Part shown: one piece after another, positions 8,454 to 60,210 of the stretch | Numbering within the stretch: position 1 is the first letter of the stretch | Layout: each line of letters opens with the position of its first letter | Assembly: GCA_017601345.1 (NCBI GenBank) | Contig: JAFNIT010000001.1 | Coordinates: 12,835 to 76,834 of the forward strand | DNA length: 64,000 nucleotides | Direction: 5' to 3' | DNA from: Candidatus Brockarchaeota archaeon | GTDB taxonomy: Archaea; Thermoproteota; EX4484-205; JAAOZP01 | The notes under the pieces: model-generated | The model's database searches: none | What the model was told of the DNA's origin: nothing | What the model saw: only the letters and a program-made list of their open reading frames with translations | Program-made: the position numbers and the translations under genes

Positions 8454-8458
8454 CCAAG

Positions 8459-8641: not shown

Positions 8642-8729
8642 CAGAAATCTCTATAAGAATGCTTATAACCTCCAATGCGCGTCAATATTGGCGGATAAAT
8701 ATTCTTTTTAAAAGTTTGGAATAGAAGTG
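8642..8729. promoter_or_regulatory. Bidirectional promoter region between the two arms of the pilus-like locus
   Basis: 88-bp AT-rich spacer. TATA-like TTTTTAAAAG lies ~20 bp upstream of the plus-strand small ORF. TATA-like TTATAAG (minus orientation) lies 20-40 bp upstream of the minus-strand ATG at 8641. Confidence 0.4.
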
Positions 8730-8876
8730 ATGTCAAAAGACGATCTATTAATTAATGCAATAATTCAAGAAATAGAAGATTTGAAGATTAGTCTAAGCAA
8801 GCTCAACAATAGGGTTTTAAGCTTAGAGAAAAAGTATCGTGAGCTAAGCAATTTCCTAAAGGTTGTCTACAGATGA
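8730..8876 (+). CDS. 48-aa coiled-coil protein, translationally coupled to the downstream ATPase
   Basis: MSKDDLLINAIIQEIEDLKISLSKLNNRVLSLEKKYRELSNFLKVVYR with a heptad-like pattern. Its stop TGA overlaps the ATG of the 8873 ORF (ATGA). Not in the ORF track. Confidence 0.4.
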   Translation: MSKDDLLINAIIQEIEDLKISLSKLNNRVLSLEKKYRELSNFLKVVYR

Positions 8877-10753: not shown

Positions 10754-11321
10754 GAAGCTTTTAACATCTCTTTACATTTTAGCACCAATAAGGAAAAAAG
10801 AAGAGAGTTCTTATGAGATAGTGACTCCATTGGTAATGGATATCATTACTGCTAAAACAATTTATAATGATTTATATAAGACATTTTATAGCGTTTCAAA
10901 AAAGGAATATGGCAATATCTACAGCTTATTAAGAAAATGTCTTAGGGAGAACTTAAATGGGAAGGATATGCAAAAAATGATAAAAAATTCTTTACAAAAT
11001 GATCCAGAACTATTAACTATTATTGATCAAGCATTTTCCATCGATGTAAAGAAAATAAGTTCAGAAGAAGTCCTAGTGCTCTTTAGGATTTTTGAATCTA
11101 AGGCAAGAAGGAAATATCAAGAATATACTCTAAAGCTTAACTCCTTGGTTTCTATTTTCTTCTTCTATATCTTCCTTGTTCCAACTCCAATTATACTGAT
11201 CTCAGAATTCCTGCCACAGACTTCCTATATACTACTGCCAATCTTTTTCATTTCCAATACCCTGATATTTAGAATATTTTTTAATAAGATTAGGAGGATC
11301 AAGAGTGAATTATTAGGTTGA
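10740..11321 (+). CDS. TadB/TadC-like platform protein, first half (single T2SSF-like unit)
   Basis: A ~130-aa cytoplasmic helical domain followed by hydrophobic helices (SLVSIFFFYIFLVPTPIILISEF, SYILLPIFFISNTLIFRIFF). Its ends overlap the ATPase upstream and the next ORF downstream. Confidence 0.55.
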   Translation: MKSIKKLLTSLYILAPIRKKEESSYEIVTPLVMDIITAKTIYNDLYKTFYSVSKKEYGNIYSLLRKCLRENLNGKDMQKMIKNSLQNDPELLTIIDQAFSIDVKKISSEEVLVLFRIFESKARRKYQEYTLKLNSLVSIFFFYIFLVPTPIILISEFLPQTSYILLPIFFISNTLIFRIFFNKIRRIKSELLG

Positions 11322-12091
11322 GGAATATTTATTATTATATATTAATTGAAGCAGGAATTCTTATTTTAGCATTTATCTTAAAACTCGAGATTCCAGCTAT
11401 AACTTCATTGCAACTTCTAGTATATACATTAATATTGACCAAAAATGGAGATGATGTGGATTCTCCAAAAACACTGGATTTGAGAGCAGTGGAGAAGATA
11501 TCCGAATATCCTGGAAACTTGGAAAATTTAGTTTTTAAATCATTTTCAGATATTAATGGGGAAACGGATTGTCGTAAGATTTTCGAAAAAGCTATTCACG
11601 ACAACATAAACGGTTTTCCAATAGGAAAAGCTCTAGTAAAGTATTCCAAACCATCAGATAAAACTATTAAAATATTGATGAAACTCGTTTCAAGCCTATT
11701 CGTTAGAGATGCGTCTTCTGTCAAAAAAGTTTTAGAAACATATATTATCATTCTGAAAGAAAACGAGATATTGAAAAATGAGAGAAGAAACATTTTTTCA
11801 GAGGCGAGGTTTAGAGCCAGAATAATGCTAATCGTTAGTGCTCTTTTAATGGGATTTCTTTCAGCAACGGGACCAGTAATCCACATGTTCTCTTCTTTTT
11901 CATCAAAGCCGATTCTTCAATTAGAAGCATCGCAAACATTTTCATTATTTACGTATTTACTGAGCGTTTCGATACTAGTACATTATTCTCTCTCTTATAA
12001 GAAGCTTTTGAAAACATTGCTATACTCCATAACCAGTTTTGCACTCTCTTTTCTAATATTTAACAAAGTACTTACAGCATTCCTATTTTAA
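11318..12091 (+). CDS. TadC/FlaJ-like platform protein, second half (polytopic membrane protein)
   Basis: Two N-terminal TM helices, a ~130-aa soluble domain, and three C-terminal TM helices. The ATGA-type overlap with the preceding ORF suggests two coupled genes rather than one fused FlaJ. Confidence 0.55.
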   Translation: MRNIYYYILIEAGILILAFILKLEIPAITSLQLLVYTLILTKNGDDVDSPKTLDLRAVEKISEYPGNLENLVFKSFSDINGETDCRKIFEKAIHDNINGFPIGKALVKYSKPSDKTIKILMKLVSSLFVRDASSVKKVLETYIIILKENEILKNERRNIFSEARFRARIMLIVSALLMGFLSATGPVIHMFSSFSSKPILQLEASQTFSLFTYLLSVSILVHYSLSYKKLLKTLLYSITSFALSFLIFNKVLTAFLF

Positions 12092-12110
12092 ATGTCTCTT
12101 AATTCCATTG

Positions 12111-12125
12111 GAGCTTATATTTTGT
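12111..12125 (+). promoter_or_regulatory. Putative internal promoter (TATA-like) for the pilin gene
   Basis: GAGCTTATATTTTG lies about 35 bp upstream of ATG 12158, inside the only non-overlapping gap (66 bp) of the operon. Confidence 0.3.
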
Positions 12126-12157
12126 TCATCTCCATTTGTAAATGAGGTGATGTAGAT

Positions 12158-12346
12158 TTGAAAATGAGAATTAAGGGATCGCAATTAATAGAAGAAGGGT
12201 TGCTTGTTGTGCTTGCACTAGTAATGCTTGGAGCAGTCTTTGGGATTTCAAAACAAATCGTGGATCACATAGCCAGTTTCTTCAACTCTCTAATAAAGGG
12301 TGTAAGTGACTTAGGCTATAGCCTATTCGGATGGCTCCTTCCTTAA
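12158..12346 (+). CDS. Flp/type-IV-like pilin with class III signal peptide
   Basis: MKMRIKG|SQLIEEGLLVVLALVMLGAVFG: a basic N-terminus, a Gly at the putative prepilin-peptidase site, Glu at +5, then a 20-residue hydrophobic helix. 62 aa in total. Confidence 0.6.
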   Translation: MKMRIKGSQLIEEGLLVVLALVMLGAVFGISKQIVDHIASFFNSLIKGVSDLGYSLFGWLLP

Positions 12347-12350
12347 AATA

Positions 12351-14123
12351 ATGGATCAAAAAATAGATCCAATATACTTCGTATTTCTTATAGTGTTACT
12401 CATATCGATGCTTAAACATATTGCAGCCGCTTTGCCTTTTTCTTTCAACAATTACTTTCCTGCCGTTTTGCCTACAGTATTCTCCCTAATAACAATCATA
12501 ATAGTATTTTTATTAAAACGCTCCAAATCTATTAAAAGTATACTACCAATTAATGACGAAAAATACTTTATTGTGAAAACAGACTCTTCTGAATTAATAA
12601 TAGGAGGGGTTTCAATATCCCCTGAAGAAAGCTCTGAATTAAGAAGTATTAAAGCCGACGATTACTATCGGAGGGTTCAGAGTTTCATAAGTGGTATTTT
12701 AAAGTCCGGAGTTTCACTCACATGCGTAACGCATATTTCTCCCGTTGAGGCTTTTGAGGACTCTGCTCATTTGACGCAGCTTTTAATAGTCAGTAGAAAA
12801 ATAGGTCGAGAGGGTATTAACGAAGCTATAAAAATGCTTGAAACAGATATTGAAAAAATGAGATCTATTTACAATACTGCTTTTCCAGAACTGAAAATAG
12901 TCAGGTTGAGTGGAGAGAAACTTATTAAGTATTTGAACAGTATTTTAATAGATAAGTCTGTCTTAGGAAAGTCTAAAGTAAGAGATTTAGCAAATTCGCT
13001 CGCACTGCATGTACCTGGATATACTTCCCTGCTTCCTTCAAATTCTTATATTGAACATGAGGGGGGAAAAGAAACGATAGATTTAGGATCGGTTATTTTC
13101 AGTGGTTCTAAAATTGCTCCGTTAAAATTAAAGATCAATATGTTTGAAAAGCATGTTGCCATATATGGTTCAACAGGATCGGGAAAGACAACTACCGCCA
13201 AACATATAGTGAGAGAATTAGCAAGATTGGGATATTCTTTAATGATTCTAGACTGGCATAATGAATACCGTCATCTTGCAGAAGAGCTTAATGGAAGAAT
13301 TTTAGGATTAGGGTCTTTCGCTTTAGATATAATTAACCCCATTGAATCTAGCAATGTATCTGAGCATGTTGCAATGGTTACAGATATTTTTGATCAAATA
13401 TATAATTTTACACCGTCACAATCGTATATGTTTAGAGAGGTGCTTTTACAAACGTTAACAGAGAACATGCTCGGTATTAAAGCATATGATCCTTTGGTTT
13501 CCTTTATAGATACGTTGGAGAAATGGAGTATTAAATCATTCTATGAAAATGAGACAAAGTTTGCATTGTTAAGAAGATTAAGACCTTTAGTAACAGGACA
13601 GAACAGAGAAATTTTCTGCAATAGGGATAAGCTAATAAGCATCAGAGATATATTAGAAGGAATTACTGTTTTCGAGCTCGGAGATATCATAGAAGTAGAC
13701 ATGCGTAAACTGACTTCACTTTTCATTTTAGCATTACTTTACGAATTTAGATTAAAGAATAGGGATTCGAAGCGCCACTTCATCGTATTAGAAGAAGCGC
13801 ATAATATACTTCCTTACAGGAGGCGTGATTCACCACAGACTATAGCTGAAAAATTATTTTTAGAGATGAGGAAGTTTAATGAAAGTTTAATACTTATATC
13901 ACAATTTCCGTCGCAAATTTCTCCAGAAATAGTAAAGTCCACCGGTTTGAAAATCTCTCACAGAATATGTGAGGGGGAGGAGTCGAGAATCTTAATGGAT
14001 ATAATGGGCTTATCTCAGGAAGATTATGACCTTCTTAAGAGGCTTCCCCCGGGATATGGCTTTTTAACGGCTGAAGGCATTTCTAAACCAATCTTTTTAT
14101 CTATCTATTTCAACGAAAAATGA
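12351..14123 (+). CDS. Membrane-anchored HerA/VirB4(CedB)-like P-loop ATPase (DUF87/FtsK-HerA superfamily)
   Basis: Two N-terminal TM helices (IYFVFLIVLLISMLKHIAAALPF; AVLPTVFSLITIIIVFLLK). Walker A YGSTGSGKTTTAKHI. Walker B FIVLEEAHNILP. A C-terminal LILISQFPSQI...ISHRI motif typical of HerA/VirB4/TrbE ATPases. Confidence 0.75.
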   Translation: MDQKIDPIYFVFLIVLLISMLKHIAAALPFSFNNYFPAVLPTVFSLITIIIVFLLKRSKSIKSILPINDEKYFIVKTDSSELIIGGVSISPEESSELRSIKADDYYRRVQSFISGILKSGVSLTCVTHISPVEAFEDSAHLTQLLIVSRKIGREGINEAIKMLETDIEKMRSIYNTAFPELKIVRLSGEKLIKYLNSILIDKSVLGKSKVRDLANSLALHVPGYTSLLPSNSYIEHEGGKETIDLGSVIFSGSKIAPLKLKINMFEKHVAIYGSTGSGKTTTAKHIVRELARLGYSLMILDWHNEYRHLAEELNGRILGLGSFALDIINPIESSNVSEHVAMVTDIFDQIYNFTPSQSYMFREVLLQTLTENMLGIKAYDPLVSFIDTLEKWSIKSFYENETKFALLRRLRPLVTGQNREIFCNRDKLISIRDILEGITVFELGDIIEVDMRKLTSLFILALLYEFRLKNRDSKRHFIVLEEAHNILPYRRRDSPQTIAEKLFLEMRKFNESLILISQFPSQISPEIVKSTGLKISHRICEGEESRILMDIMGLSQEDYDLLKRLPPGYGFLTAEGISKPIFLSIYFNEK

Positions 14124-14709
14124 GATTCAGCTTCTCGGAATGCTTAGAGAAATAACTAATCCAATCCACTTCATCACTCTTACATTTAAAGTCATTCTTA
14201 TAGCATTTCATAAACCTGTAATAGAGGTTTTTAATGCTTTTCCTAGTAGTGTCTAACTGTATGATCCTTACCTTTTTCAAGTATTTTTTAGCATTTAAGT
14301 AACAATAATCCGTAAGCTCCGATTCAACATTCTCCCTCGCTTTTTCCTCATTATATCCTTTAATTTTCCTGAGTCTATGCCAAAGAACATCAGGTCTGCA
14401 TCTCAATACGATACAACAGTCCACGTACTCAGCTGGAGAAACCTCCGCAGCATAATGGCCGTCTATTAGGAGGTTTAAATCCTCTCCAAGCTTGCTTAAA
14501 ATATATTTTCGTAAAGCCTTCTTCAGAACGCTTGTATCCACAATTCTAGTTTTCATAATACTGTCGTAGCCGATTACAGCATTCGAATCTATTGCAAACT
14601 TTCCCAAGTCAAGATGTACCCATCCTCTATTCTTTCTCACTACATAGCTGCACAGAGATGTTTTGCCGGTTCCAGCTGTGCCAGTAACAACTATGATTTT
14701 CCTCATCAC
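14110..14709 (-). CDS. Putative adenylate kinase / NTPase, Fap7-like (AAA-family kinase)
   Basis: P-loop IIVVTGTAGTGKTS at the N-terminus. ~200 aa with NMP-kinase-like layout. Confidence 0.55.
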   Translation of the reverse strand: MMRKIIVVTGTAGTGKTSLCSYVVRKNRGWVHLDLGKFAIDSNAVIGYDSIMKTRIVDTSVLKKALRKYILSKLGEDLNLLIDGHYAAEVSPAEYVDCCIVLRCRPDVLWHRLRKIKGYNEEKARENVESELTDYCYLNAKKYLKKVRIIQLDTTRKSIKNLYYRFMKCYKNDFKCKSDEVDWISYFSKHSEKLNLIFR

Positions 14710-14812: not shown

Positions 14813-14887
14813 AGCGGCGTTCGTCTAGTCTGGTTAGGACACCAGCCTTCCAAGCTGGGGATCCCGGGTTCAAATCCCGGACGCCGC
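14813..14887 (+). tRNA. tRNA-Gly(TCC)
   Basis: Manual fold: acceptor GCGGCGT/ACGCCGC plus A73. D-stem GTCT/GGAC. Anticodon stem CCAGC/GCTGG with loop CTTCCAA (anticodon TCC). T-arm CCGGG-TTCAAAT-CCCGG. 75 nt, no intron. Confidence 0.85.
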
Positions 14888-14931
14888 ATAAAAGCCTAAT
14901 AACCCATTTACCTCTTCTGCATAAGGTTTAG

Positions 14932-20951: not shown

Positions 20952-22451
20952 TTATGGAAGAGAAAAGCCTTCTACAATTCTAGCGACTTGGCCTTCTAGG
21001 AATTTTTTAGCATCCCTGTCCCTTTGAATCATCTCGTTCAACTTAGAATAATAATCTTCTATCATTTTTTCCCTTTCACGTATCATTTTTAAATCATTAC
21101 TCTGGCAACCCGCACCAGCTGAGGTTCTTAGTGAAACTAGCGTCTCCTCACTTTTACTCAAGATGTTTAGCAGGATCGGACTTATGTCCCTACCCAATAT
21201 TTGTAGAGAGACTTCTTTCAGCTCTTCCTCCTTAATGTTTTTGAAGCCTCTACCATCCTTAAGGCTCCTCTTCACCATCTCGCCAACCAGCTTATGGGCC
21301 AGCCTGAACGGAACCCTAGCCTCTTCGATAATTCTCTCAGCAACGTCTAGAGCGATGATGTTTTGCTCCATAGATGACCTTATTCTCTCCCTATTTTCTC
21401 GCATATTTTCAACGGTGATTCTAACTATTTTAAGCGTCTCTTTTACTGTTTCAATCGCTTCAATAAGAGGAGGCTTAGTCTCCTGCAGGTCCCTAACGTA
21501 GCCGCTTGGTGCCCCTTTACACACCATTGAGAGCTGGGCTAGGCTTGAGAAAACCCTTCCAGACCTTGCGCGAGCTAGCTCAAGTATGCAGGGATTCTTC
21601 TTGTTTGGCATCGCACTAGAAGGAAATGCTAATTCGTCTGGGAGAGTGAAAAAGCCGAATTCTGAAGTCAACCAAATTATTAAGTCCTCCATCATTCTGC
21701 TCAAGTTAAGCATTAGTATATTGAGATTTGATACAGTCTCTAGTATGAAGTCTCTAGAAGATACTGCGTCAAACGAGTTCTCTAATAGACCATGGAAACC
21801 AAGGAGCTTTGTTGTAAGCTCTCTGTTTACTTTCAAGGAGGTTCCAACTATCGCGACGCTTCCGAGAGGATTAAGGTTAATTCTCTTCAAAGATTCCGCT
21901 ATGCGGTCAAAATCCCGCATCAAAATGTCGAAATAACCTAGAAAGTAATGTGATAAAGGGGCTGCTTGCGCTTGTTGAAGATGCGTGTAGAACGGAAATA
22001 AAACGTCAATAGTTTCACGGGCTTTTTTCAATAATGTTTTCTCAAGATCCAGTATTTCTCTCAGGATATTGAAAACCTCCCTCCTAGTCTTAAGCCTCAC
22101 CGCAGTCACAACCTGATCGTTTCTTGATCGGGCAGTGTGAACTAATCCTCCGATTTCAATCCCGACTTCTTTAATTACGAATGATTCTATAAGCTCATGT
22201 ACATCCTCATATTTGTAAGTATCGGTCTGTACCAACTCCTTGTTTTCTAAAAGTTTTTTGATTGCGGAAACGATCTTCTTAAACTGGTCTTCCGTTATGT
22301 ATCCTTGTTTCATAAGCATGAAGTCGTGCGCAATAGTAGCTTCTATATCTTCGTAAAATATCCATGAATCTTCTTTAATGCTTGACGTGTATCTTGTTGC
22401 TTCCGGAAAAGCAGGTTCCAGTCGGCTGCGGTATATGCCCTCTTCAGACAT
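20952..22451 (-). CDS. argH: Argininosuccinate lyase
   Basis: Fumarate-lyase family signature SSAMPNKKNP. The N-terminal region resembles ArgH (RYTSSIKEDSWIFYEDIEATIAHDFMLMKQGYI). 499 aa. Confidence 0.85.
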   Translation of the reverse strand: MSEEGIYRSRLEPAFPEATRYTSSIKEDSWIFYEDIEATIAHDFMLMKQGYITEDQFKKIVSAIKKLLENKELVQTDTYKYEDVHELIESFVIKEVGIEIGGLVHTARSRNDQVVTAVRLKTRREVFNILREILDLEKTLLKKARETIDVLFPFYTHLQQAQAAPLSHYFLGYFDILMRDFDRIAESLKRINLNPLGSVAIVGTSLKVNRELTTKLLGFHGLLENSFDAVSSRDFILETVSNLNILMLNLSRMMEDLIIWLTSEFGFFTLPDELAFPSSAMPNKKNPCILELARARSGRVFSSLAQLSMVCKGAPSGYVRDLQETKPPLIEAIETVKETLKIVRITVENMRENRERIRSSMEQNIIALDVAERIIEEARVPFRLAHKLVGEMVKRSLKDGRGFKNIKEEELKEVSLQILGRDISPILLNILSKSEETLVSLRTSAGAGCQSNDLKMIREREKMIEDYYSKLNEMIQRDRDAKKFLEGQVARIVEGFSLP

Positions 22452-22559
22452 CTTTCTTAAAAACGAGTTTTAAGCCAGCTAATAAGGTTATAGACCGCAT
22501 AGGCGATTCAAAATTTAAAAACAATCCTCTCCATATGCTTTATAGCTGGAAAGAACTTT

Positions 22560-23678: not shown

Positions 23679-24695
23679 TTATAAAAGCCTAATGCATCTT
23701 CCTCTTAAAGAATTAAGGTCATATGCCTCGTATCCGAGGTTTCTAAGCTCCTGAGAGAATTCTTTAGAAAAACCGTGTACTGTAAAAATCTTCTGGGGAG
23801 AGGTTTCTTCAACTATTTTAAGCAAACCATGGAAATCCGCATGGTCACTCAATGGAAAAGCCCGGTCGACGGCAAGCATTTCTTCATAACTTTTTAAAAG
23901 CGACCTGCCTGAGAACCAGATTAAAACCGCACCGTACTTCTTTTTAATAACCTGCAGGAAAGCATTCCTACCGGAAATATTCGGGTAGTAAAGCACCCAG
24001 TTACTGTCTCGTGGGAACGATTGAGACTGAGGGCACAGTATCTTTTTCTCACTTATCATCATTGAGAAAAGCCTGTAGACATCGTTATACCTTGCTATTG
24101 ATGGAGAAACATATTTCTCAACATCCGGCAGGAAACGGTCTAGAATCATTTGAACATGCTGCGATTTGCCCAACGGGTAGCCCATAAAGACCACGGGCCT
24201 GCTCTTCTTCAAGTTTTCTCGCACATAGTCAACAACTTCTTTAACTAGCTCATGTCGAGGAGGGAAGACTAGGTTTGGACGCCCGTAGTTAGACTCTATT
24301 ATCAGAGTATGTACCTTCGGAAAACATTGCTTGGGCATGTCTGCAAGAGGAGAATTGTTTACGTCTCCGGTGTAGAGTATCTTTTCACAACCCGCTTCTA
24401 AAACTATTGACTTAGAGCCCAATATATGTCCTGAATCTAACAGGAGAAAAGGACTCTCTGTCCGCTTTATTCCAAACCCTCTGAGCGTTGATAAGATGAA
24501 TGTTTCTTCTGAGCATATGGCCTCTACGTTCTGAGACTCCTGCTTACAAATGTGATCAAGGTGAGCGTGAGAAATGAAAACATAATCTGGAGAGTCATAT
24601 GATCCCATTTTTAATGCCGTCTCACTTCCATTAAGATAGATTGTTGCAAACCTGTCTAGCCTAATTGAAAGAGCCCTATTTGGAGTATGGTGCAT
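23679..24695 (-). CDS. Metallo-beta-lactamase-fold / beta-CASP-like hydrolase
   Basis: ISHAHLDH (HxHxDH), a downstream TGD motif (YTGDVN) and C-terminal LSDHADF...VHG beta-CASP-like motifs. 338 aa. Confidence 0.6.
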   Translation of the reverse strand: MHHTPNRALSIRLDRFATIYLNGSETALKMGSYDSPDYVFISHAHLDHICKQESQNVEAICSEETFILSTLRGFGIKRTESPFLLLDSGHILGSKSIVLEAGCEKILYTGDVNNSPLADMPKQCFPKVHTLIIESNYGRPNLVFPPRHELVKEVVDYVRENLKKSRPVVFMGYPLGKSQHVQMILDRFLPDVEKYVSPSIARYNDVYRLFSMMISEKKILCPQSQSFPRDSNWVLYYPNISGRNAFLQVIKKKYGAVLIWFSGRSLLKSYEEMLAVDRAFPLSDHADFHGLLKIVEETSPQKIFTVHGFSKEFSQELRNLGYEAYDLNSLRGRCIRLL

Positions 24696-24697
24696 TT

Positions 24698-26365
24698 TTA
24701 AAGGAAGAACCTGTTGTCTCTAAGCTTGTTTAAAAACTTGCTTTCAATCTTTTTTACTACCGGAGTCCACTTTCTCCTTCTCTCCTGAAGCTCATCCTCA
24801 TCCACCAACAGATCAAGCCTCCTGCCCGGAACATCTATGAGTATCTCGTCACCGTCTTTTACAAGAGCTATAGGCCCGCCTAAGAACGCTTCTGGAGAAA
24901 CATGCCCTATAGCAATCCCCTTAGTGCCCCCCGAGAACCTGCCGTCAGTAACTAACGCAACTTTCTCTACAAGACTTCTCCCAACTATGAGCGAAGTCGG
25001 CATCAGCATTTCGCGCATGCCGGGTCCGCCCAGCAGTCCTTCATACCTCACAACCACGACAGTATTCTCTTCGAAATCTTCTTTTTCAAGAGCTTTAACC
25101 ACCTCCTCTTCTGAATCGAATACTCTAGCCCTACCTCTGAATGTCCTAAGCTGCATCGGTGTTCCGGCGAGTTTTATGACAGCACCTTCAGGAGCTAGAG
25201 ATCCCCGCAGGATAGCTATACCACCTTCGCTTCTATATGGGTTCTCAGGAGGACGTATGAGAGAGCCTTGTGGCTCGGGGAAAGTTTCGACAAGCTCTCT
25301 TAAAGGCTTACCAGTTACCGTCATCGCATCCAAGTAGATATACTTCCTTAACATTTTTAGAAGCGATGGGATTCCACCAGCATTGTAGAAGTCGATCATA
25401 AAGCTTTCCCCAGACGGCCTTATGAGAACTAGCGTCGGTACTCTTCTACTAATCTCATCGAATACTTGAAGAGAGAGATCGTAACCAGCTTCCTTAGCGA
25501 GAGCGCTTATGTGGAGAACAGTGTTAGTGGATCCTCCTAAAGCATTATCTATGATTATCGCGTTAATCAGGTTCTCCCTTTTAACCACATCCTTAAACTT
25601 AAGCCCCTCTCTCCAGAGCCCGACTATTCTCCTCCCCGAGTCATAGGCAAGCCTCTTCTTCTTTTCATCTAAGGCGTGTGTTGCAGCCATGTTTGGAAGA
25701 GATAGGCCCATTGCCTCCACTAGGCAAGCCATAGTGTTCGCTGTGAAAAGCCCCGCACAGCTTCCAGCTCCGGGGCAAGCAGCCCTTTCAAATTCTCTCA
25801 ATTCCTCCAAAGTAAACTTACCCTCATGGTATTCGCCTAATACTTCAAAGACAGATACTAGGTCAATCCTCCTACCCTTAAAGACACCTGGGTACATCGG
25901 CCCGCCGGTGACGAATATGGAAGGGAGATTCAGCCTTGCAGCCGCAAGAAGATGTCCGGGAACAATCTTATCGCATGAAGAGATGAAGACAGCAGCATCA
26001 AACATGTGTGCCGAAAGCATTATCTCTATCGAATCCGCTATCACCTCCCTGCTTGGAAGCGAGTACTTCATTCCCTCATGGTTCATCGCTAACCCGTCGC
26101 AGACAGCAATAGTATTGAAGACGAAGGGCACGCCACCCTCGTCTCTAATCCCCCTCGATACTTCTTCAGCTAGAGAGTTTAAGTGAATATGCCCTGGCAC
26201 AATACTGGTGTATGAGTTAACTACTGCTATGAATGGTTTTTCAAAATCCTCCTTCTCCAGCCCAACGGCGTGCAGGAGGCTTCTGTGAGGAGCTCTGTCA
26301 ACACCCTTCTTGATTGCGTTACTCCTCATCTCGTGGGGTTTCTCCTTGAGCATGCTGGATTTCAT
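24698..26365 (-). CDS. ilvD: Dihydroxy-acid dehydratase
   Basis: IlvD/EDD family: CDKIVPGHLLAAARLNLPSIFVTGGPM with Fe-S Cys ligands. 555 aa. Confidence 0.9.
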   Translation of the reverse strand: MKSSMLKEKPHEMRSNAIKKGVDRAPHRSLLHAVGLEKEDFEKPFIAVVNSYTSIVPGHIHLNSLAEEVSRGIRDEGGVPFVFNTIAVCDGLAMNHEGMKYSLPSREVIADSIEIMLSAHMFDAAVFISSCDKIVPGHLLAAARLNLPSIFVTGGPMYPGVFKGRRIDLVSVFEVLGEYHEGKFTLEELREFERAACPGAGSCAGLFTANTMACLVEAMGLSLPNMAATHALDEKKKRLAYDSGRRIVGLWREGLKFKDVVKRENLINAIIIDNALGGSTNTVLHISALAKEAGYDLSLQVFDEISRRVPTLVLIRPSGESFMIDFYNAGGIPSLLKMLRKYIYLDAMTVTGKPLRELVETFPEPQGSLIRPPENPYRSEGGIAILRGSLAPEGAVIKLAGTPMQLRTFRGRARVFDSEEEVVKALEKEDFEENTVVVVRYEGLLGGPGMREMLMPTSLIVGRSLVEKVALVTDGRFSGGTKGIAIGHVSPEAFLGGPIALVKDGDEILIDVPGRRLDLLVDEDELQERRRKWTPVVKKIESKFLNKLRDNRFFL

Positions 26366-27887: not shown

Positions 27888-29572
27888 CTCCCAGTTATGA
27901 CATGATCGAGCGTTGCTGCAGGCGGAACCATTGGAAACACGTTGTCCTCCCGCTCAACGATCACGTCTATTACAGTTGTCTCATTCTGTTTAACAGCTAT
28001 TTGTAAAGCTTCTTTAAGCTCGCCGACCCGTGATACTTTGAATGCTCTAGCACCAAATCCTTCTGAAACCTTTGCTATATCGGCCTTACCCTTAAGATCT
28101 ACAGCTATGTATCTCCTGTCATAGAACAATTCTTGCCATTGTCTAACCATTCCCAAGAAGTAATTGTTGAGAACAACCACTATGATGGGGAGGTTGTAGT
28201 CTACAGAAACCGGTAGCTGGTTACATGTCATGAAGAAGCTGCCATCGCCAGCAATGTCGAAAACTCTTTGTTCGCGGAAAGCAGCCTTAACGCCTATTGC
28301 TGCAGGAAGCCCGAAGCCCATTGTTCCAAGTCCCCCGGAGGATATGAATTGCCTTGGGCGTTTCGCTAAGAAATGTAGAGAGGCATACATTTGGCACTGG
28401 CCGACTTCAGTAGTTACAAAGTCGCTGGGAGTAACGTAATCGTTTAGAACTCTGACGACAGTACTCGGTTTTATTGGCACAGCATCGTAATCATAAAGGA
28501 ACTCAGACTCCTTTTTAAGCTGTTTGAGTTTCTCACCCCATCTCCCAGCCTTACCTTTTTGAACCATCTTTACCAGGTTTGAGTAAAGCTTGCTCAAAAC
28601 GTATTTTGCATCTCCCACTATACCGATATCTGGCTTGAGGAGTTTCCCTATTTCAGACCTATCTATGTCGATATGTATTTTCTTAGCTCCTGGAGCAAAA
28701 CCACTTAACTTACCTGTGGTCCTATCGCTAAATCTTGCACCCACAGCGATGAGAACATCGCTTTCTTGAACAGCTCTTATCGCACTCAGTTTACCATGCA
28801 TGCCTACACAACCCAGTGAAAGAGGATGGTCCTCCGGAATACTGCCTTTCCCCATTAGAGTAGTCACCACTGGAGCGTTTAGCAACTCTGCTAAAGCAAC
28901 GAGTTCGCTGGAGGCTCCTGACATTATTACTCCGCCGCCAGCAAGTATAACAGGCCTTTCCCCGTCTGCGATCATTCTCGATGCTAGAAATATTTCCTCG
29001 TCGGACGGTATTGGAGGATTATATGAATACGAGAAGATATTGTTCTTCGGATCACCCTCCATTAGTTGAACATCTCTCGGAATATCGATATGCACTGGGC
29101 CAGGCCTTCCGGAAAGTGCTATTTTGAAAGCATTTTCTAGAGCGGAATTCAATTCCTCCAGGTTTCTCGGCAGAAAGTTCATCTTAGTCAGCCCTATCAT
29201 CATGGAGAAGATATTAGCCTCCTGGAAAGCATCGTAGCCTATTAAGAATGTTGGCACTTGGCCAGCCATACTTATCACTGGAGAGGAGTCTAAGTATGCG
29301 TTTGCAATGCCAGTGGCCAGGTTAGTGGCACCTGGGCCAGATGTTACTATTACAACACCAGCTTTTCCAGTCGCCCTGGCATACCCATCAGCCATGTGGG
29401 TAGCGCCCTGCTCATGCCTCGTTAGAATAAACTCTATGTCGCCAGCCTTGTATAGCTCGTCGAACAGTGGAAGAACTGCTCCTCCAGGTATTCCAAATAC
29501 CGTCTTAACCCTATTCTCCCTAAGCTTATCAACTATTAGTCTAGCTCCTGAAACCATTGAAAACACCTCCAT
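27884..29572 (-). CDS. ilvB: Acetolactate synthase large subunit (ThDP-dependent)
   Basis: ThDP-enzyme N-terminal, central and C-terminal domains with the GDG...NN ThDP-binding motif (IAGDGSFFMTCNQ...VLNN). 562 aa. Confidence 0.9.
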   Translation of the reverse strand: MEVFSMVSGARLIVDKLRENRVKTVFGIPGGAVLPLFDELYKAGDIEFILTRHEQGATHMADGYARATGKAGVVIVTSGPGATNLATGIANAYLDSSPVISMAGQVPTFLIGYDAFQEANIFSMMIGLTKMNFLPRNLEELNSALENAFKIALSGRPGPVHIDIPRDVQLMEGDPKNNIFSYSYNPPIPSDEEIFLASRMIADGERPVILAGGGVIMSGASSELVALAELLNAPVVTTLMGKGSIPEDHPLSLGCVGMHGKLSAIRAVQESDVLIAVGARFSDRTTGKLSGFAPGAKKIHIDIDRSEIGKLLKPDIGIVGDAKYVLSKLYSNLVKMVQKGKAGRWGEKLKQLKKESEFLYDYDAVPIKPSTVVRVLNDYVTPSDFVTTEVGQCQMYASLHFLAKRPRQFISSGGLGTMGFGLPAAIGVKAAFREQRVFDIAGDGSFFMTCNQLPVSVDYNLPIIVVVLNNYFLGMVRQWQELFYDRRYIAVDLKGKADIAKVSEGFGARAFKVSRVGELKEALQIAVKQNETTVIDVIVEREDNVFPMVPPAATLDHVITGR

Positions 29573-29745
29573 GAAGAATTGTAGCTATGATCGCTAAAGG
29601 AGGTAGGGCTCTTAGGGCGTAAGCAGTTGGCGGACGGGATCTCGCCCCCTTGGAGCATTATTCTTCGGGTACACTCACTGCACCTCCTGAGCAGAAGCCC
29701 TCACGCATAGGGGCTATATTAATTTTTCCCCGATTAATTGGGCAG

Positions 29746-30462
29746 CTAATAACCGTCTACGCGAATGCTTTTAGCAGCATTAGAGTTTACGTATACTGCT
29801 ATAGCGTAGAACACTATAGATAGAACAGAAGCAACCAGGAAAACCGGCTCAGTAAGGTTGTTTACTCCACCATTTTCTAGCGAAGGCGTTGGCCAAGGCA
29901 CTAGGGGGAGAAGGGGAATAGGTGATGAAAGATGTTTGTTGAATACGAAGAAAATAATCGTGTTGAAGATAGACACGCATAGAAAAGACGCTGTTGAATC
30001 CGCTAGCTTACTAAACGCTTCCTTTGAGAAAATACTCCCTATGGAGAGAGAGAGAAGCCAGTTAACATGTGTAGCGATCATAAAAAATAGTAGGGAGGGC
30101 ATTTGAACATACTGGAGTGATAAGTATGGCAGGATGAAAACCAGCGTCTTAAACTCCAGTAAAACCAACGAGGCAACTGAGTGTACCAGAAAAGGGGTTT
30201 GAGAAGAATAGCTAGTATAAATCTTAATTTTAATACCTTTGTTTAAGAACCATTCACGCCATATTTCGAGTTCGAAGTACGTAGAGTAGAGGATGAGCAT
30301 TAACCATATGACTGGTAACAATTTGTCTAGAACTGCTAGATCGCTAAAAATACTTCCGACGATTTTTAGCACCGCGATTACAACGACTGAAACAAGCTCT
30401 AGGCTTATGAAGAGCGGCGAAGTAAAGAAGAGCTTTAACTCCTGGGAGAACAGGCTCGCCAA
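29746..30462 (-). CDS. ABC-2-type permease (polytopic membrane protein)
   Basis: Six hydrophobic helices. Immediately downstream of the ABC-like NBD gene in the same orientation. Confidence 0.5.
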   Translation of the reverse strand: MASLFSQELKLFFTSPLFISLELVSVVVIAVLKIVGSIFSDLAVLDKLLPVIWLMLILYSTYFELEIWREWFLNKGIKIKIYTSYSSQTPFLVHSVASLVLLEFKTLVFILPYLSLQYVQMPSLLFFMIATHVNWLLSLSIGSIFSKEAFSKLADSTASFLCVSIFNTIIFFVFNKHLSSPIPLLPLVPWPTPSLENGGVNNLTEPVFLVASVLSIVFYAIAVYVNSNAAKSIRVDGY

Positions 30463-30467
30463 CCTTG

Positions 30468-31406
30468 TTAAACCTCCATAAACCTGTTCGCAGACTCAAG
30501 CAGGTGCTGCCTACTGCTTATTATCTTGTCCACTACAGCACCTTTTTTAACAAGCAGATCCAGAAGACCCTGTATCTTCTCTGGAGCATTATCCAGTTCT
30601 ATAACCGCCTCGTTCTCCCCGGTAGCATACCAGCTTACGCCCATTTTCTCAAGAGCATCAATATTAGCCTCTATATTAAATTTTGAAACGTGGAAGGAAA
30701 GTATTCCGGGGCCCCCAACGCCTGTGACAAAGCTTTCAACATGATCCATAGCGGTCTGCTGTCCATTGTGTAAAATCACGATTCTGTCGCATACTTCGTC
30801 GAGCAATAGCGGAGTCGTTGAGAAGATTACCATGGATTTCCCTAAGTCTATGGAAGTCCTTATGAAATTCCTCATTAACACTGCAACATCAAAGGGAATT
30901 CCTCTAAAAGGATCGTACAATAACACTACGGCTGGGTCGTGTATGAAGGTCGATGCGAAGCATAGCTTCCTTCTCAATGATAGGGGGAGCCTAAACCATT
31001 TTACCGGAGCCAAGTCGGATGCTTCGAACAATGACAGTATTTCCTTCGCCCTGGCTAGGGATTTTTCCTTGGGCAAGCCGTGCATGGAGGCTGAGAGAAG
31101 TAGATTATCCAATACCGTGGAGTTTCCAAGTAGGTCCATCTGACAGGAGTAGAAACCGATTCTTTTAATCAAATCCTTCCTCCGGATCACCGGATTGTTG
31201 AAGTATATTATGGTGCCTGATGTCGGCTTCTCTAAGAGAAGAAGGATTCGGAACAAGTGGTCAACGGGCTCGATCCTGTTGGAGACTACTCCAAGTATTT
31301 CAGAATGGTCTAGAACAAAGCTGATGTTTGAAAGCAGGAAATGATCTCCCCTTTTTAAACTTAAATCCGAAACTCTGAGTGGGGCACCAGTGGGTTCTAG
31401 ACTCAA
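30468..31406 (-). CDS. ABC-transporter NBD-like protein with degenerate catalytic motifs (probable pseudo-ATPase)
   Basis: ABC fold is recognisable, but Walker A is VVSNRIEPV (no GxxGxGK[ST]), the signature is LSLRR (not LSGGQ), Walker B is VLLYDPF (no D-E) and the H-loop is STT. A ~90-aa C-terminal domain follows. Confidence 0.7.
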   Translation of the reverse strand: MSLEPTGAPLRVSDLSLKRGDHFLLSNISFVLDHSEILGVVSNRIEPVDHLFRILLLLEKPTSGTIIYFNNPVIRRKDLIKRIGFYSCQMDLLGNSTVLDNLLLSASMHGLPKEKSLARAKEILSLFEASDLAPVKWFRLPLSLRRKLCFASTFIHDPAVVLLYDPFRGIPFDVAVLMRNFIRTSIDLGKSMVIFSTTPLLLDEVCDRIVILHNGQQTAMDHVESFVTGVGGPGILSFHVSKFNIEANIDALEKMGVSWYATGENEAVIELDNAPEKIQGLLDLLVKKGAVVDKIISSRQHLLESANRFMEV

Positions 31407-31726
31407 TATTCAAACCCCCTGTAGAAGAATGGTGGAAGCTCATAACTCAAGATCTCGGGAATCATGGTCCCAAAGGCCAGAGAATTCATCGCCTTCCACC
31501 ACATTAAAGTGGTTTTGAAAGGGGTGTTTTTAAGCTTTCCCTCTGGGAAAAACAGTTGTACCTACTCGAAAGCCCCTTTAAGTAAAGAATTCTCTTTCAA
31601 ATAGTGAAAACGCGGAGGAAGCCTTTTATCCGCATTGTTTTTAGTCTAGAAATATAAGAGAGTAAAGAAGCAGACATAATTCGCTGTAAAATTTTTATTC
31701 ACCATTTTACACATTAACTTGGATAA

Positions 31727-31817
31727 GCGGCGCTGGTCTAGCCTGGTAGGACAGGCCTACTTTCCTAAAACCAGCCCCCCAAGCTGGGAATCCCGGGTTC
31801 AAATCCCGGGCGCCGCA
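31727..31817 (+). tRNA. tRNA-Gly(CCC) with a 17-nt non-canonical intron between positions 26/27
   Basis: Acceptor GCGGCGC/GCGCCGC plus A73. D-stem GTCT/GGAC. Intron GGCCTACTTTCCTAAAA at 31754-31770. Anticodon stem CCAGC/GCTGG with loop CCCCCAA (anticodon CCC; C at position 33 is unusual). T-arm identical to tRNA-Gly(TCC). TATA-like ATTTTTATTC ~25 bp upstream. ORF 31719..31955 is spurious. Confidence 0.7.
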
Positions 31818-32032
31818 TCCAATGTCATTAAAGATCTAAAATTGATCAAACAATTAGAACAGGAGACGCTGTCAATTGTTTTTACTCAATCAATTTTATT
31901 TGACCTTCCCCCCGAAGCCAAGAACTTAGAAAGGCTTCTTAAGTATGAAGAGTGAGATAAGAATTCTCTTTAAATAATTTTGAAAGCCCTATTGGAAAAA
32001 AGAAAAGAAAGATGAAAGCTGGGATTAAAGAC

Positions 32033-33688
32033 TTAGTCTAGTTCTCCTCCGCCTGCTCCCTCAGAGGGCGGAGACGGGGGCTTCTCCTTCTCCTTAAGCT
32101 TGCCTGCAGCAATCACATCGTCTATTCTCAGAATCATGCTGGCGGCTTCGCTAGCGGATTTTATTACCTGCTCTTTTACCAGAAGAGGCTCTATGATCTT
32201 ATTAGCCCAGCTGTCAGCAGTTTTCTTAGCGTACACGTCGATTCCATACCACCTGTTGCCACCCTCATGATTCTTCCTCAATTCGGCGACTATGTCTATC
32301 GGATCCATACCAGCGTTTTCTGCAAGCGCCGACGGTATTGACTCCAATGCGTCTGCAAACCTTAATACTGCAAGCTGCTCCTTGCCAGCTATCGTCTCAG
32401 CCTTCTTCCTAATTCTCATCGCCACCTCTATCTCCGGAGCCCCTGCCCCAGCAACGATGTACGGGTAGGTGACAACATCCTTTACAACGCAGAGAGCATC
32501 GTGCAGAGCCCTATCGGCCTCGTCAATCATTTTCTCCGTCCCGCCTCTTATGAGTATGGTTACAGACCTCGGATCCTTACACTGCTCTATGAATACCCAT
32601 TTATCTTCTCCGACTTTCCTCTCCTCCACTAAGCCAGCGTAGCCAAGGTCTTCCTTGGATAGCTCGTTAACGCTGGTGACGATTCTTGCTCCGGTCGCCT
32701 TTGAAGCCTTTTCTATGTCGGATTCTTTAACCCTCCGGACTGCGAGTATTCCTGCTTTAGCAAGATAGTGCTGCGCAATATCGTCAATACCCTTCTGACA
32801 GAGCACTACGTTAGCACCGGCTTCAACAATCTTATCAACCATGCCCTTAAGAATCTTCTGCTCCTCGTCTAAGAAGGCCTTAATCTGCTCAGGGCTTTCA
32901 ATGCTTATCTTAGCATCGAACTCAGTCTTCTCTATCTCGAGCGGACTGTTCAGAATAGCTATTTTGGCGTTAACCACTTTCTTAGGCATACCTGAATGGA
33001 CAACTTCCTTGTCTAAAACAATGCCTTTAATCAGCTTGGTCTCCATGACTGAGCCACCCGCTTTCTTCTCGACTTTAACATCGTCGATTCTAACGCTGTA
33101 CTTGCCGTTCTCCTCCCTAGCAACGTTCAAAATTGCCTCCACCGCTATGTTTGCAAGCTGCTCAGCATAGTCTCTAACAACCTTGCTCGTTAAAGCAGTC
33201 ATGGCTATTAGTTTAAGAACCTCCCTGTCAGTAGGCTTAACCTCCTGGGCAATCTCCTTCAGGAAGGAAAGGGCCATGGTAGTAGCCTTCCTGTAACCGT
33301 CAACTATGATGGTCGGGTGGACATCCATGTCGAGAAGCTCCTCAGCCTTCTTCAGAAGCTCTCCAGCGAGTACAACAGCAGACGTAGTCCCGTCGCCAGC
33401 CTCCACGTCGGTGCTCTTCGCCACCTCAACCATCATTTTTGCAGCAGGGTGCTCAATCTCCATCTCTTTCAAAATGGTTGCACCATCGTTGGTTATCGTA
33501 ACGTCGCCAAGAGAGTCTACAAGCATCTTATCCATGCCTCTTGGACCCAGCGAAGAACGGACTATTTCGGACAGTGCTATTGCAGCATTCAGATTGTTTC
33601 TTTGCGCTTCTCTGCCCCTCGTCCTCGTACTGCCCTCTTTGAGTATGAGAACAGGCGTTCCTCCCACTGTTGCGGGTATAGCAGCCAT
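32033..33688 (-). CDS. ths: Thermosome subunit (group II chaperonin, CCT/TCP-1 family)
   Basis: [24 protein letters not shown] motifs and a C-terminal Gly-rich tail. 551 aa. The antisense ORFs are spurious. Confidence 0.95.
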
Positions 33689-42287: not shown

Positions 42288-42345
42288 AGAGATCCACCGA
42301 TTTTCATCTATACAAGGCTCATTATAAGTCTTAACCCTTATAAAA

Positions 42346-42437
42346 AGCCCCAGGTGGGCTTCGAACCCACGACCTCCTCCATCAGCGCTTTTCAGCATTA
42401 CCAAGGAGGCGCTCTAACCAGGCTGAGCTACTGGGGC
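42346..42437 (-). tRNA. tRNA-Thr(GGT) with canonical 17-nt intron after position 37
   Basis: Reverse complement: acceptor GCCCCAG/CTGGGGC plus U73. Anticodon stem CCTCC/GGAGG encloses TTGGTA-[ATGCTGAAAAGCGCTGA]-T, so the anticodon is GGT. T-arm GTGGG-TTCGAAG-CCCAC. Confidence 0.75.
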
Positions 42438-42635
42438 TGTAAAGTTTCAGCATGCTTATGATTTAAAGTTTTTCTAGACCTGATTTTCGAGTATGTTTCG
42501 TCTCTTTCTGCATAATTTGTTTGATGCTAATAAAATCATGCTTTTTTCTTTAATGATGATGCCTCTGTTTTTGTGAATAAACTAGTAAAAAAGATTGTAT
42601 TGAAACCCATATAAAAAAGCTATATAAGTCGGCAG

Positions 42636-56492: not shown

Positions 56493-56493
56493 C

Positions 56494-57252
56494 TCATTTC
56501 ACCTCGTAGAAGCGGGTAAAATAGATAAAAGCGATTGATAAGAATCCGAGAGAAATAATGAAGGCGACTATTAAATTGTTAACTGCTTCATGCGGAACAA
56601 GAAGAAAATTGGACGTAGAAATCGGCGGAATATTATATAGGAAAGATCCCGGTTGAGGATTAGAATGTTTAATCAAGTTATCCAACGAGTAAAAAATTAA
56701 AGCACTTGACAAAATCGAAATAATAGTTCTATCTGAAACAGTAGAGATAAGGACATTTAAAGATATGATGAATATTGTTTGAATTAATAAAGAGAAACAA
56801 GGAATTAATAAAGAAAATAATGTTTCTACTAACCAAGCCCCTCTTAAATTGTAGACGAGGAGCACTATGGTTGAAGTAAAAAGACATATGATGCCGAAAA
56901 GAATTAAAGCTATAAGTTTAGCTGCAAATAGCTCTGTTCTATTTCGCGAATATACAAGTTCCATATCTAACATACCGGATTCGCGTTCATACGGTAATAT
57001 AATTGCAGTTATCACCCCCATGAGTATTCCTTGTATTACGAAAGCAAAAGAAACTACTGGATATAGAATTTGTTCAGCAAAAAAATGGATAATGGTATAA
57101 CTTTCTAAGGAGCCTATGTCTTCTGAGGATATGGAGCCCATAAGACTTGGTAGCATTATCGTCCCATTGAATATCATGCTGGCGATCACGATCTCCGGTA
57201 TTGGGAATGCAAGCAGTTTCTTCAGTTCCCAACGGATGCTTTCAAGATTCAA
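56494..57252 (-). CDS. ABC-2 type transporter permease
   Basis: Six TM helices. Overlaps the upstream ATPase gene. Confidence 0.6.
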   Translation of the reverse strand: MNLESIRWELKKLLAFPIPEIVIASMIFNGTIMLPSLMGSISSEDIGSLESYTIIHFFAEQILYPVVSFAFVIQGILMGVITAIILPYERESGMLDMELVYSRNRTELFAAKLIALILFGIICLFTSTIVLLVYNLRGAWLVETLFSLLIPCFSLLIQTIFIISLNVLISTVSDRTIISILSSALIFYSLDNLIKHSNPQPGSFLYNIPPISTSNFLLVPHEAVNNLIVAFIISLGFLSIAFIYFTRFYEVK

Positions 57253-57968
57253 ACCTGAGCACCCCCCATGATTCTTGCATAAGCATTTACCAAAGTGCCG
57301 TCGAGCGAGAAGCTTTTGATGAATTTCCCTAAGGTGTCCTGCGCAATGATTTTTCCCTTATCCATAACAATTATGAAATCGCATATCTGTTCAAGCTCTT
57401 CCAGAATGTGGGTTGAAACTATTATTGACTTTCCACCATGACGTTTGATTTCCTGAATGAGCTTTACCATTTCAACCCTGCCAAGAGGATCTAGGTTGGT
57501 AGAAGGTTCATCCAGTATGATGAGAGAAGGATCTCCGATCAATGCTTGGAGAAGACCTAGTCTCTGAACCATGCCCGCAGAGTAAGTACCTATCTTTCTT
57601 TCTAGGAAGTCTCCTTTAACAACAGAATGGTGAATAACATTCTGATCTAAATCCACCTGTTTCAACTTGGCTACATGCCTTAGATAATCTATTCCAGTAA
57701 CCCATTTAGGGAAAGCACATTTCTCCCTTAAATAGCCGATTTTAGAAAAAACCTCGTCGTGACTGTAGAAAGGATCCTTACCGAATACGAGGATCCTACC
57801 GGATGATGGTTTTTGAAGACCCAGCATGATTCTGATGAATGTTGTTTTACCAGAGCCATTTGGCCCCACTAACCCATAGACCCCGTTATTAAAAGAAAGA
57901 TTCACGTTCTCAAGCGCAATGATTTTCCCAAATCTCTTAGAAACGTTAAATGCTTCTACCACACTCAT
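57249..57968 (-). CDS. ABC transporter ATP-binding protein (intact motifs)
   Basis: Walker A LVGPNGSGKTT. Signature YSAGMVQRL. Walker B IILDEPSTNLD. H-loop STH. Confidence 0.9.
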   Translation of the reverse strand: MSVVEAFNVSKRFGKIIALENVNLSFNNGVYGLVGPNGSGKTTFIRIMLGLQKPSSGRILVFGKDPFYSHDEVFSKIGYLREKCAFPKWVTGIDYLRHVAKLKQVDLDQNVIHHSVVKGDFLERKIGTYSAGMVQRLGLLQALIGDPSLIILDEPSTNLDPLGRVEMVKLIQEIKRHGGKSIIVSTHILEELEQICDFIIVMDKGKIIAQDTLGKFIKSFSLDGTLVNAYARIMGGAQV

Positions 57969-59472: not shown

Positions 59473-60207
59473 TTACTCTACTTCCCTAACGGCTACTTCA
59501 GCCCTGGTTTCGATTCTCTCAATCTTGCCATCACGTAGCCAAAATATTCTATCTGAGACGTCGATCATTTTGAGATCGTGAGTTGCATTAATTATTGTTA
59601 CTTTTTTCTCTGTGTTTAATGTTTTTAAAAGATTAATTATTTCTAATCCTGTGTGCAGGTCTAGGTTTCCCGTAGGTTCGTCTGCTAGGACTATTACTGG
59701 GTCGTTGACTAGTGCTCTTGCTATTGCTACCCTTTGCTGTTGTCCTCCCGATAGTTCTCCAGGCTTATGGTCCAGTCTCTCCCCAAGTCCCACTCTGGTA
59801 AGCATTTCTCTAGCCCTCCTAATCCTCTCGTCTCTCTCAACGCCCGTGAAAATCATCGGCAGTAGAACGTTTTCCATCGCCGTTAACACGGGTATTAGGT
59901 TGAAGGTCTGGAAGACGTATCCTATTTTCTTAGCCCTTAGCCATGCCAGCTCATAAGCGTCTAGGCTTGCTATATCCACTTCGTCGATGAAAACCTTTCC
60001 CCTAGTAGGTCTGTCTAAGCCTCCGACCATGTTGAAAAAAGTAGTCTTTCCGCTTCCCGAAGGACCCATTAGAGACAAGTACTCCGATCTCCTTATCTTC
60101 ACACTCACGCCGTCCAAAGCTTTAACGGTCACAGGACCCATTATGTAGTATTTAGCAAGATCTTCGGTTTCCACAGCATATTCGTATCTCATAACCATTT
60201 GAAACAC
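59473..60207 (-). CDS. ABC transporter ATP-binding protein, MacB/LolD/FtsE-like
   Basis: Walker A LMGPSGSGKTT. Signature LSGGQQQRVAIARAL. Walker B VLADEPTGNLD. H-loop ATHD. Confidence 0.9.
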   Translation of the reverse strand: MFQMVMRYEYAVETEDLAKYYIMGPVTVKALDGVSVKIRRSEYLSLMGPSGSGKTTFFNMVGGLDRPTRGKVFIDEVDIASLDAYELAWLRAKKIGYVFQTFNLIPVLTAMENVLLPMIFTGVERDERIRRAREMLTRVGLGERLDHKPGELSGGQQQRVAIARALVNDPVIVLADEPTGNLDLHTGLEIINLLKTLNTEKKVTIINATHDLKMIDVSDRIFWLRDGKIERIETRAEVAVREVE

Positions 60208-60210
60208 CTC

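Follow-up and report, generated by a model that had tools for sequence, protein, structure and literature searches.

A conserved ABC-type pseudo-ATPase, probably a non-catalytic subunit of an ABC-2-derived membrane complex, in Brockarchaeota

What keeps an ATP-binding cassette (ABC) ATPase gene in a genome once its product has lost every motif for binding and hydrolyzing ATP? ABC transporters are defined by the ATP-driven dimerization of their nucleotide-binding domains (NBDs), and to our knowledge degenerate ABC sites occur only as one of two, the other still being active. The question is raised by a gene in a 64,000-nucleotide stretch of DNA from a Candidatus Brockarchaeota archaeon (assembly GCA_017601345.1, contig JAFNIT010000001.1, positions 12,835 to 76,834 of the forward strand), hereafter called the window, whose own numbering is used below. 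The gene lies on the minus strand at 30468..31406, starts with TTG, ends with TAA at 30468-30470, and encodes a 312-residue pseudo-ATPase, here named pNBD, in which an ABC NBD homolog is followed by a C-terminal domain of the regulatory type. Directly downstream on the same strand, at 29746..30462, lies a gene for a 238-residue membrane protein, the putative transmembrane domain (TMD) partner. The reading that we prefer, with a probability of roughly 60%, is that selection maintains pNBD as a pseudo-ATPase that forms the cytoplasmic subunit, structural or regulatory, of a complex derived from an ABC-2 transporter and independent of ATP.

pNBD shares 100% identity with NCBI protein FGF52_00260 of a Candidatus Brockarchaeota metagenome-assembled genome (MAG). 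Its match to Pfam ABC_tran (PF00005) is significant, with 27 bits against a cutoff of 25, and its best NCBIfam matches are RbbA-NBD2, DrrA, NodI, and GldA (E values of 1e-20 to 1e-15), for all of which the equivalog cutoffs lie far above the scores of pNBD. A search of the PDB retrieved 1vpl (E value of 4e-12), and a profile of the pNBD family reached E values down to 2.5e-16 against PDB NBDs, while DUF4162 was not detected in the Pfam scan. These matches indicate that pNBD is a genuine ABC NBD homolog of a DrrA/NodI/NatA-like subfamily carrying a C-terminal domain.

The state of each nucleotide-binding motif was read from alignments with intact NBDs, and conservation was scored per column over the ortholog alignment. 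The claim, first made from the sequence alone, that every catalytic motif is degenerate was borne out: the A-loop, Walker A, Q-loop, signature, Walker B, D-loop, and H-loop are all noncanonical. The A-loop aromatic residue is replaced by K/R. The former Walker A or P-loop, GVVSNRIEPVDH (31257..31292, minus strand, residues 39 to 50), has SNRIEPVDH in place of GPNGSGKTT, the P-loop Lys having become Val48; G39, S42, N43, E46, and V48 are invariant, and acidic residues occupy positions 46 (the invariant Glu) and 49 (E/D). The Q-loop Gln, at position 89, is T/S/Q across orthologs and is not conserved. The former signature, LPLSLRRKL (30963..30989, minus strand, residues 140 to 148), aligns to LSGGQxQRL, so that the register homologous to LSGGQ is LPLSL (residues 140 to 144, with P/S/A at its position 2 and Ser at its position 4) rather than the LSLRR proposed by the sequence-only reading. 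In the former Walker B and D-loop, AVVLLYDPFRGIPFD (30888..30932, minus strand, residues 159 to 173), hhhhDE has become VLLYD, with Asp replaced by Tyr164 and the catalytic Glu by Asp165, and the D-loop Asp is P/T. L162, Y164, D165, P166, F167, R168, and G169 are invariant there, and no other block of the NBD core varies as little (block entropy of 0.35). The H-loop His is replaced by T/V within FSTTP (30810..30824, minus strand, residues 195 to 199), of which F195, S196, T197, and P199 are invariant.

These replacements are not peculiar to one genome. A word-indexed search with pNBD returned 27 clusters with 64 to 100% identity, all 312 to 326 residues long, beyond which the E value dropped from 1e-129 to 1e-27. 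When 1.84 billion representatives were searched exhaustively with a profile, a single full-length pNBD cluster emerged (630 bits) along with one fragment, followed by generic ABC proteins at no more than 137 bits. Among the GTDB species representatives, the gene was found in 14 genomes, all Brockarchaeota-like MAGs from geothermal sites, and pNBD is restricted to one deep branch of this phylum of hot-spring archaea. In 16 loci, which include the 14 species representatives, the pNBD and TMD genes are intact and syntenic, pNBD is 312 to 313 residues long, and the gene order EF-2, small open reading frame, thermosome, tRNA, pNBD, TMD, ilvB, ilvN, ilvC, and ilvD is conserved. The pair is set amid core metabolism and information-processing genes and not in a mobile element.

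The degenerate motifs are common to 22 orthologs, and the former catalytic positions are among the best conserved of the protein. Altogether, 104 of the 312 positions are invariant, those in the former motifs included. Pairwise ratios of nonsynonymous to synonymous rates (dN/dS; Nei-Gojobori) are 0.03 to 0.16 for pNBD, compared with 0.04 to 0.10 for ilvB, 0.02 to 0.05 for the thermosome gene, and 0.18 to 0.37 for the membrane partner in the same pairs. The test for purifying selection that had been suggested along with the original description therefore gave values like those of ilvB. That description had also named intact motifs in relatives and frameshifts in this copy as the marks of a simple pseudogene; intact motifs are absent from all orthologs of the family, as are frameshifts. 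The view that the gene is a decaying relic, that is, a pseudogene or relaxed gene whose open frame happens to persist, could draw on a Pfam score barely over the threshold (27 versus 25 bits) and on an evolutionary rate above that of the housekeeping neighbors, since pNBD is 64 to 69% identical where ilvB is 78 to 82% identical. It is nonetheless refuted by the intact loci with their constant length of 312 to 313 residues (16 loci, more than 22 clusters), by the low dN/dS, and by the invariance of about a third of the positions, former motifs included, and we regard it as having practically no chance of being correct. pNBD is under strong purifying selection and is not a pseudogene. Since its former catalytic positions are invariant, the pocket appears to have been rebuilt and then frozen rather than to be drifting or decaying.

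The best-conserved region of pNBD is the C-terminal domain (30471..30725, minus strand, residues ~228 to 312, ~85 residues), with the motifs SWYATGE and RQHLLESANRF. AlphaFold2 models it in the order beta-alpha-beta-beta-alpha-beta-alpha with predicted local distance difference test (pLDDT) values of 75 to 90, in an overall model that is poor (pLDDT of 57, below 50 for residues 1 to 91, from a 22-sequence family alignment). When this model was compared with the PDB by Foldseek, all 50 of the 50 matches listed were ABC NBDs (best E value of 2e-10; TM-scores of ~0.4), and the top ranks were taken by NBDs with regulatory C-terminal domains, namely, those of MetN, PmtC, NosF, and ABCA. In some systems, these regulatory domains sense a ligand or a state. 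A conserved Gly-rich linker, TGVxGPG (residues 228 to 234, ~30705-30725), joins the NBD core to the C-terminal domain.

A frozen pocket and a regulatory-type domain would also be found if the former ATP site had been remodeled to bind another ligand, or a nucleotide in a noncanonical manner, and thereby gated the membrane part. S42, N43, R44, E46, V48, Y164, D165, S196, T197, and P199 are more invariant than most of pNBD, and the resemblance of the C-terminal domain to those of MetN, NosF, PmtC, and ABCA fits such a role. However, the acidic residues in the P-loop and the loss of its Lys and Ser/Thr argue against phosphate binding, and a protein-protein interface predicts equal invariance. We consider this alternative rather unlikely.

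That pNBD is still coupled to its permease, as had been proposed from the sequence, held up well. The pNBD stop codon and the TTG start of the TMD gene are separated by a 5-nucleotide gap, a Shine-Dalgarno-like element read in the sequence, GGAGGT (30472..30477, minus strand), lies within the 3′ end of pNBD 10 to 15 nucleotides upstream of this start, and the two genes are adjacent in 16 of the 16 loci examined. The TMD gene is accordingly predicted to be translationally coupled to pNBD. PADLOC gave no defense-system match for either protein, PHROGs gave a generic ABC match only for the pair, and an Rfam scan of positions 29400 to 32100 gave a tRNA only.

The nature of the membrane protein is less apparent from its sequence, which matched nothing in Pfam or NCBIfam, the ABC2_membrane families included, and has homologs in Brockarchaeota only. 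The AlphaFold2 model (pLDDT of 66, predicted TM-score of 0.65) shows an N-terminal amphipathic helix, six transmembrane helices, and a short helix between the second and third of these. Foldseek comparison with the PDB placed NosY, CcmB, PmtD, Wzm, TarG, ABCG, and KpsM in the lead, with TM-scores up to 0.64 and weak E values of 0.03 to 0.1. From this model, the TMD is predicted to be a very divergent ABC-2 (type V) permease-like protein. Its K/R residues are concentrated in the predicted cytoplasmic loops, as the positive-inside rule expects. Mean column entropy is 0.99 in the cytoplasm-facing half versus 1.79 in the external half (p = 3e-12), and dN/dS is 0.10 to 0.34 in the former and 0.23 to 0.66 in the latter. 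Both the N-terminal helix RELKFFFTSPLF and the region STYFELEIWR..FLNKG.K, which covers the end of the second transmembrane helix and the coupling region, belong to the conserved cytoplasmic half. Continued docking of the pseudo-NBD on the permease would lead one to expect such conservation. Between the TMD stop codon and the ilvB start, a GC-rich intergenic region of ~170 nucleotides (29573-29745) lies on the pNBD-TMD strand and has no Rfam match.

Could an active NBD encoded elsewhere complete the complex? The sequence-only reading had offered this as one of its options, and a heterodimer of that type would retain one working ATP site, as heterodimeric ABC exporters and the fused RbsA/NupO ATPases do. 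There is precedent in NBDs that have lost the Walker A Lys and Walker B residues and are paired with an active half (PMC11466899; PMC7756269), and besides pNBD the window encodes intact NBDs at 57249..57968 and 59473..60207. Against this, the pNBD signature LPLSL and its D-loop are degenerate as well, so that neither composite site would be canonical. None of the 16 loci has a second NBD gene beside the pair; each encodes one NBD and a single half-size TMD. Both other NBDs in the window have permeases of their own and belong to other subfamilies. Because Walker A and the signature are both degenerate and the pair has no second NBD gene alongside, the proposal proved weak, and we judge such a heterodimer improbable.

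The first of these NBDs belongs to the intact ABC-2 module at 55974-57968, which had been described as identical in architecture to the pNBD module. The resemblance did not survive comparison: the NBD at 57249..57968 has 239 residues, lacks the ~85-residue C-terminal domain, and is only 20% identical to pNBD, and the module consists of three genes, the third encoding 172 residues. The related proposal that pNBD is a paralog repurposed as a pseudo-ATPase stands in part. A conserved pseudo-ATPase is well supported by dN/dS and by the 22 orthologs, whereas descent as a paralog of the 57249..57968 NBD is not, at 20% identity. The third gene of the intact module (55974-56492, minus strand) is translationally coupled, has hydrophobic N- and C-terminal segments and no family match, and may encode an accessory extracytoplasmic subunit. 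The other NBD, 59473..60207, is canonical and part of a third ABC system of the MacB/LolD type (59473-60861, minus strand) together with a 216-residue FtsX-family permease.

A closer relative of pNBD was found outside the window. A family of 314-residue proteins (P0152, P0300, and P0302 to P0310), labeled Candidatus Brockarchaeota or Thermoproteota by NCBI and here called the sister family, is the best single-NBD match of the pNBD profile, with 117 to 135 bits at an identity of ~29%. In a per-domain search of the fetched proteins, it supplied 18 of the top 19 matches, the next match scoring 105 bits. A profile of the C-terminal domain of pNBD found the sister family only, with 23 to 38 bits for the 19 top matches and 19.6 for the next. 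Like pNBD, the sister proteins are of similar length (314 versus 312 residues), have the C-terminal domain (VSW..TGE.E; LE.A), and are followed by a ~240-residue permease; their linker reads RGIAGSG at the position of TGVxGPG. Unlike pNBD, they keep Walker A (GPSGSGKTT), Walker B (LLFDEPT), and the D-loop intact, and their permease matches Pfam ABC2_membrane. Their Q-loop Gln is replaced by Asp and their H-loop His by Asn/Ser, and the signature is LPRGL or LSSGI.

The genomic context also connects the two families. In the sister clade the order is epimerase, NBD, permease, rhomboid, a 329-residue RMMBL-like protein, (PGM), argH, and argG. Counterparts of the RMMBL-like protein (329 residues, 23679-24719, 39% identity) and of argH (20952-22469, 42% identity) lie downstream of the pNBD-TMD pair in the window, on its strand and in the order of the sister family, with ilvBNCD and a methyltransferase gene inserted. 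The two families are probably positional orthologs, to judge from profile scores and synteny, on which the relationship rests; a distance tree was left out as evidence. The adjacency of pNBD to ilvBNCD is found throughout its clade, yet a rhomboid gene takes that place in the sister clade, and no functional inference is therefore drawn from ilvBNCD. Near the ABC pair of the sister clade, GT4 glycosyltransferases, together with a sugar epimerase/dehydratase gene upstream of the pair, hint at an envelope-glycan context for the ancestral module. In locus L086, the sugar epimerase/dehydratase (9399-9869 of that locus) is truncated to 156 residues, compared with 351 to 355 residues in L083 (2-1057) and L088 (7975-9042). 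Another protein, P0188, with intact Walker A and B motifs, an LSLSL signature, and an Asp in the H-loop, was considered as an intermediate and rejected; it is encoded on a 1.4-kb contig without context and scores below the sister family.

Comparison of the two families suggests how the motifs may have been lost. The starting point would have been a conventional ABC-2 exporter with a C-terminal domain of the regulatory type on its NBD. The NBD would then have lost the Q-loop Gln and the H-loop His while keeping Walker A and B, as in the sister lineage. In the lineage of the window, the P-loop, signature, Walker B, and D-loop would finally have been rebuilt, with the new residues becoming fixed. 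Such a stepwise order of losses is what the present-day motif states suggest.

The permease gene has a history of its own. Between two loci, L010 and L011, the DNA is ~96 to 97% identical over 7.9 kb, and the permease gene alone is 51 to 66% identical (6832-7537 in L010 and 1911-2616 in L011; window counterpart, 29746-30462). At the protein level, ilvB and pNBD are each 98% identical between these loci and the TMD is 47% identical. Allele classes of the TMD are incongruent with those of pNBD and ilvB, L011 grouping with L013 and L008 with L014. The sister family (L083/L086) has such a divergence island as well, with 87 to 94% nucleotide identity in the NBD gene and 48 to 66% in the 3′ two-thirds of the permease gene, which implies that the island is older than the death of the ATPase. 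Since overall dN/dS of the TMD is below 1, positive selection is not demonstrable. The pattern points to old alleles exchanged by recombination and, at the outer face, to relaxed constraint or pressure to diversify. In hot-spring archaea, selection on the exposed side of this module may favor diversity or depend on allele frequency. That near-identical pNBD proteins (98%) are paired with TMDs only 47% identical fits docking through conserved cytoplasmic motifs.

In the complex that we favor, most likely (pNBD)2(TMD)2 and derived from an ABC-2 (type V) transporter, pNBD would be a non-catalytic subunit without canonical nucleotide binding. The pseudo-NBD would dock on the conserved cytoplasmic face of the permease, formed by the N-terminal helix, the end of the second transmembrane helix, and the coupling-helix region, and would probably dimerize through its C-terminal domain and the remodeled Walker B/D-loop surface. 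Its role may be that of a scaffold or gatekeeper. The membrane part could, for example, passively export or flip a hydrophobic compound or an envelope constituent, or could have a strain-specific surface role, and its activity would no longer be driven by ATP hydrolysis at pNBD. Complex formation, the mode of dimerization, and ATP independence are thus proposed from sequence features and remain predictions.

Several observations weigh against this proposal. The assignment of the TMD comes from a medium-confidence model with weak Foldseek E values (0.03 to 0.1). Given the poor AlphaFold2 model of the NBD core, the N-terminal fold and the geometry of the former site are not established, and the sequence may be compatible with noncanonical nucleotide binding by pNBD. 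On the evolutionary side, alignment of the TMD with the sister permease by hhalign was not significant, whether with a single sequence or with a profile (E value of 0.055), and the distance tree gave the grouping of pNBD with the sister family low bootstrap support overall (31/200) and none for the NBD core (0/100), the C-terminal domain by itself giving 55/100.

A bolder formulation, which we put forward tentatively and hold to be possible but not probable, is that of a natural ATP-free ABC transporter. It would be a homodimeric type V complex that works without nucleotide and still needs its NBD, with a passive or strain-specific permease, and it would form a three-step series with the sister family. 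In such a transporter, E46, E/D49, and Tyr164 at the former phosphate and Mg2+ site could stand in for bound nucleotide and keep the dimer in its closed form; alternatively, a cue other than ATP could gate the pNBD dimer. The permease, whose outer face is hypervariable and whose old alleles are exchanged between near-identical genomes, would then either flip or export its substrate passively or be a component, specific to the strain, of the envelope or of a receptor.

Whichever function applies, the proposed pseudo-ATPase subunit can be set beside known systems. In NosFY, PmtCD, DrrAB/NodIJ-type, and ABCA exporters, as here, the NBD is followed by a six-transmembrane-helix half-permease and carries a C-terminal domain of ~85 residues. 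The N-terminal amphipathic helix of the permease model and the best structural matches (NosY, CcmB, PmtD, and Wzm for the TMD; MetN, PmtC, NosF, and ABCA for pNBD) are further likenesses to exporters of the NosFY/PmtCD type, from which the pair differs in that pNBD lacks every nucleotide-binding and catalytic motif and the permease has no ABC2_membrane match in Pfam. Impaired NBDs retained by selection are known from the second NBD of RbsA/NupO and from heterodimeric exporters, in which the dead NBD keeps the motif that completes the site of its partner (PMC11466899; PMC7756269). Unlike these systems with one degenerate composite site, pNBD is encoded in single copy, is presumably a homodimer, and lacks both motifs. 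As a concept, an ABC-type membrane domain free of ATP has its closest precedent in SbmA/BacA (SLiPT), which works without ATP by proton-driven secondary transport (PMC13316013). In SbmA the TMD is type IV-like and the NBD has been lost entirely, whereas here the NBD persists as a protein that has lost its chemistry, next to a type V-like TMD. A search of the literature, incomplete in coverage and thus weak evidence of novelty, found no description of an ABC pseudo-ATPase of this kind. If our reading is correct, the structural or regulatory role of an NBD would be separable from catalysis, and pNBD and the sister family would constitute a natural series for the loss of ATP dependence. Both pNBD and the TMD are small proteins for which heterologous expression is possible, making the question directly testable.

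Other features of the window are mentioned for completeness. ARAGORN predicted tRNA genes of 91 to 94 nucleotides at 31727-31817 (plus strand) and 42345-42438 (minus strand) with no anticodon assigned, which are probably intron-containing archaeal tRNAs; the first, located between the thermosome gene and pNBD, matches the Rfam tRNA family with 38 bits. Beside a tRNA-Gly gene (14814-14888), a block of low GC content (~6000-14700; 0.33 to 0.35 versus ~0.43) carries genes for a TFIIB-Zn-ribbon protein and for two ATPases, one T2SSE/VirB11-like (8873-10753) and the other HerA/TraG/VirB4-like (12351-14123), along with several small uncharacterized proteins. This block looks like an integrated conjugative or plasmid-like element.

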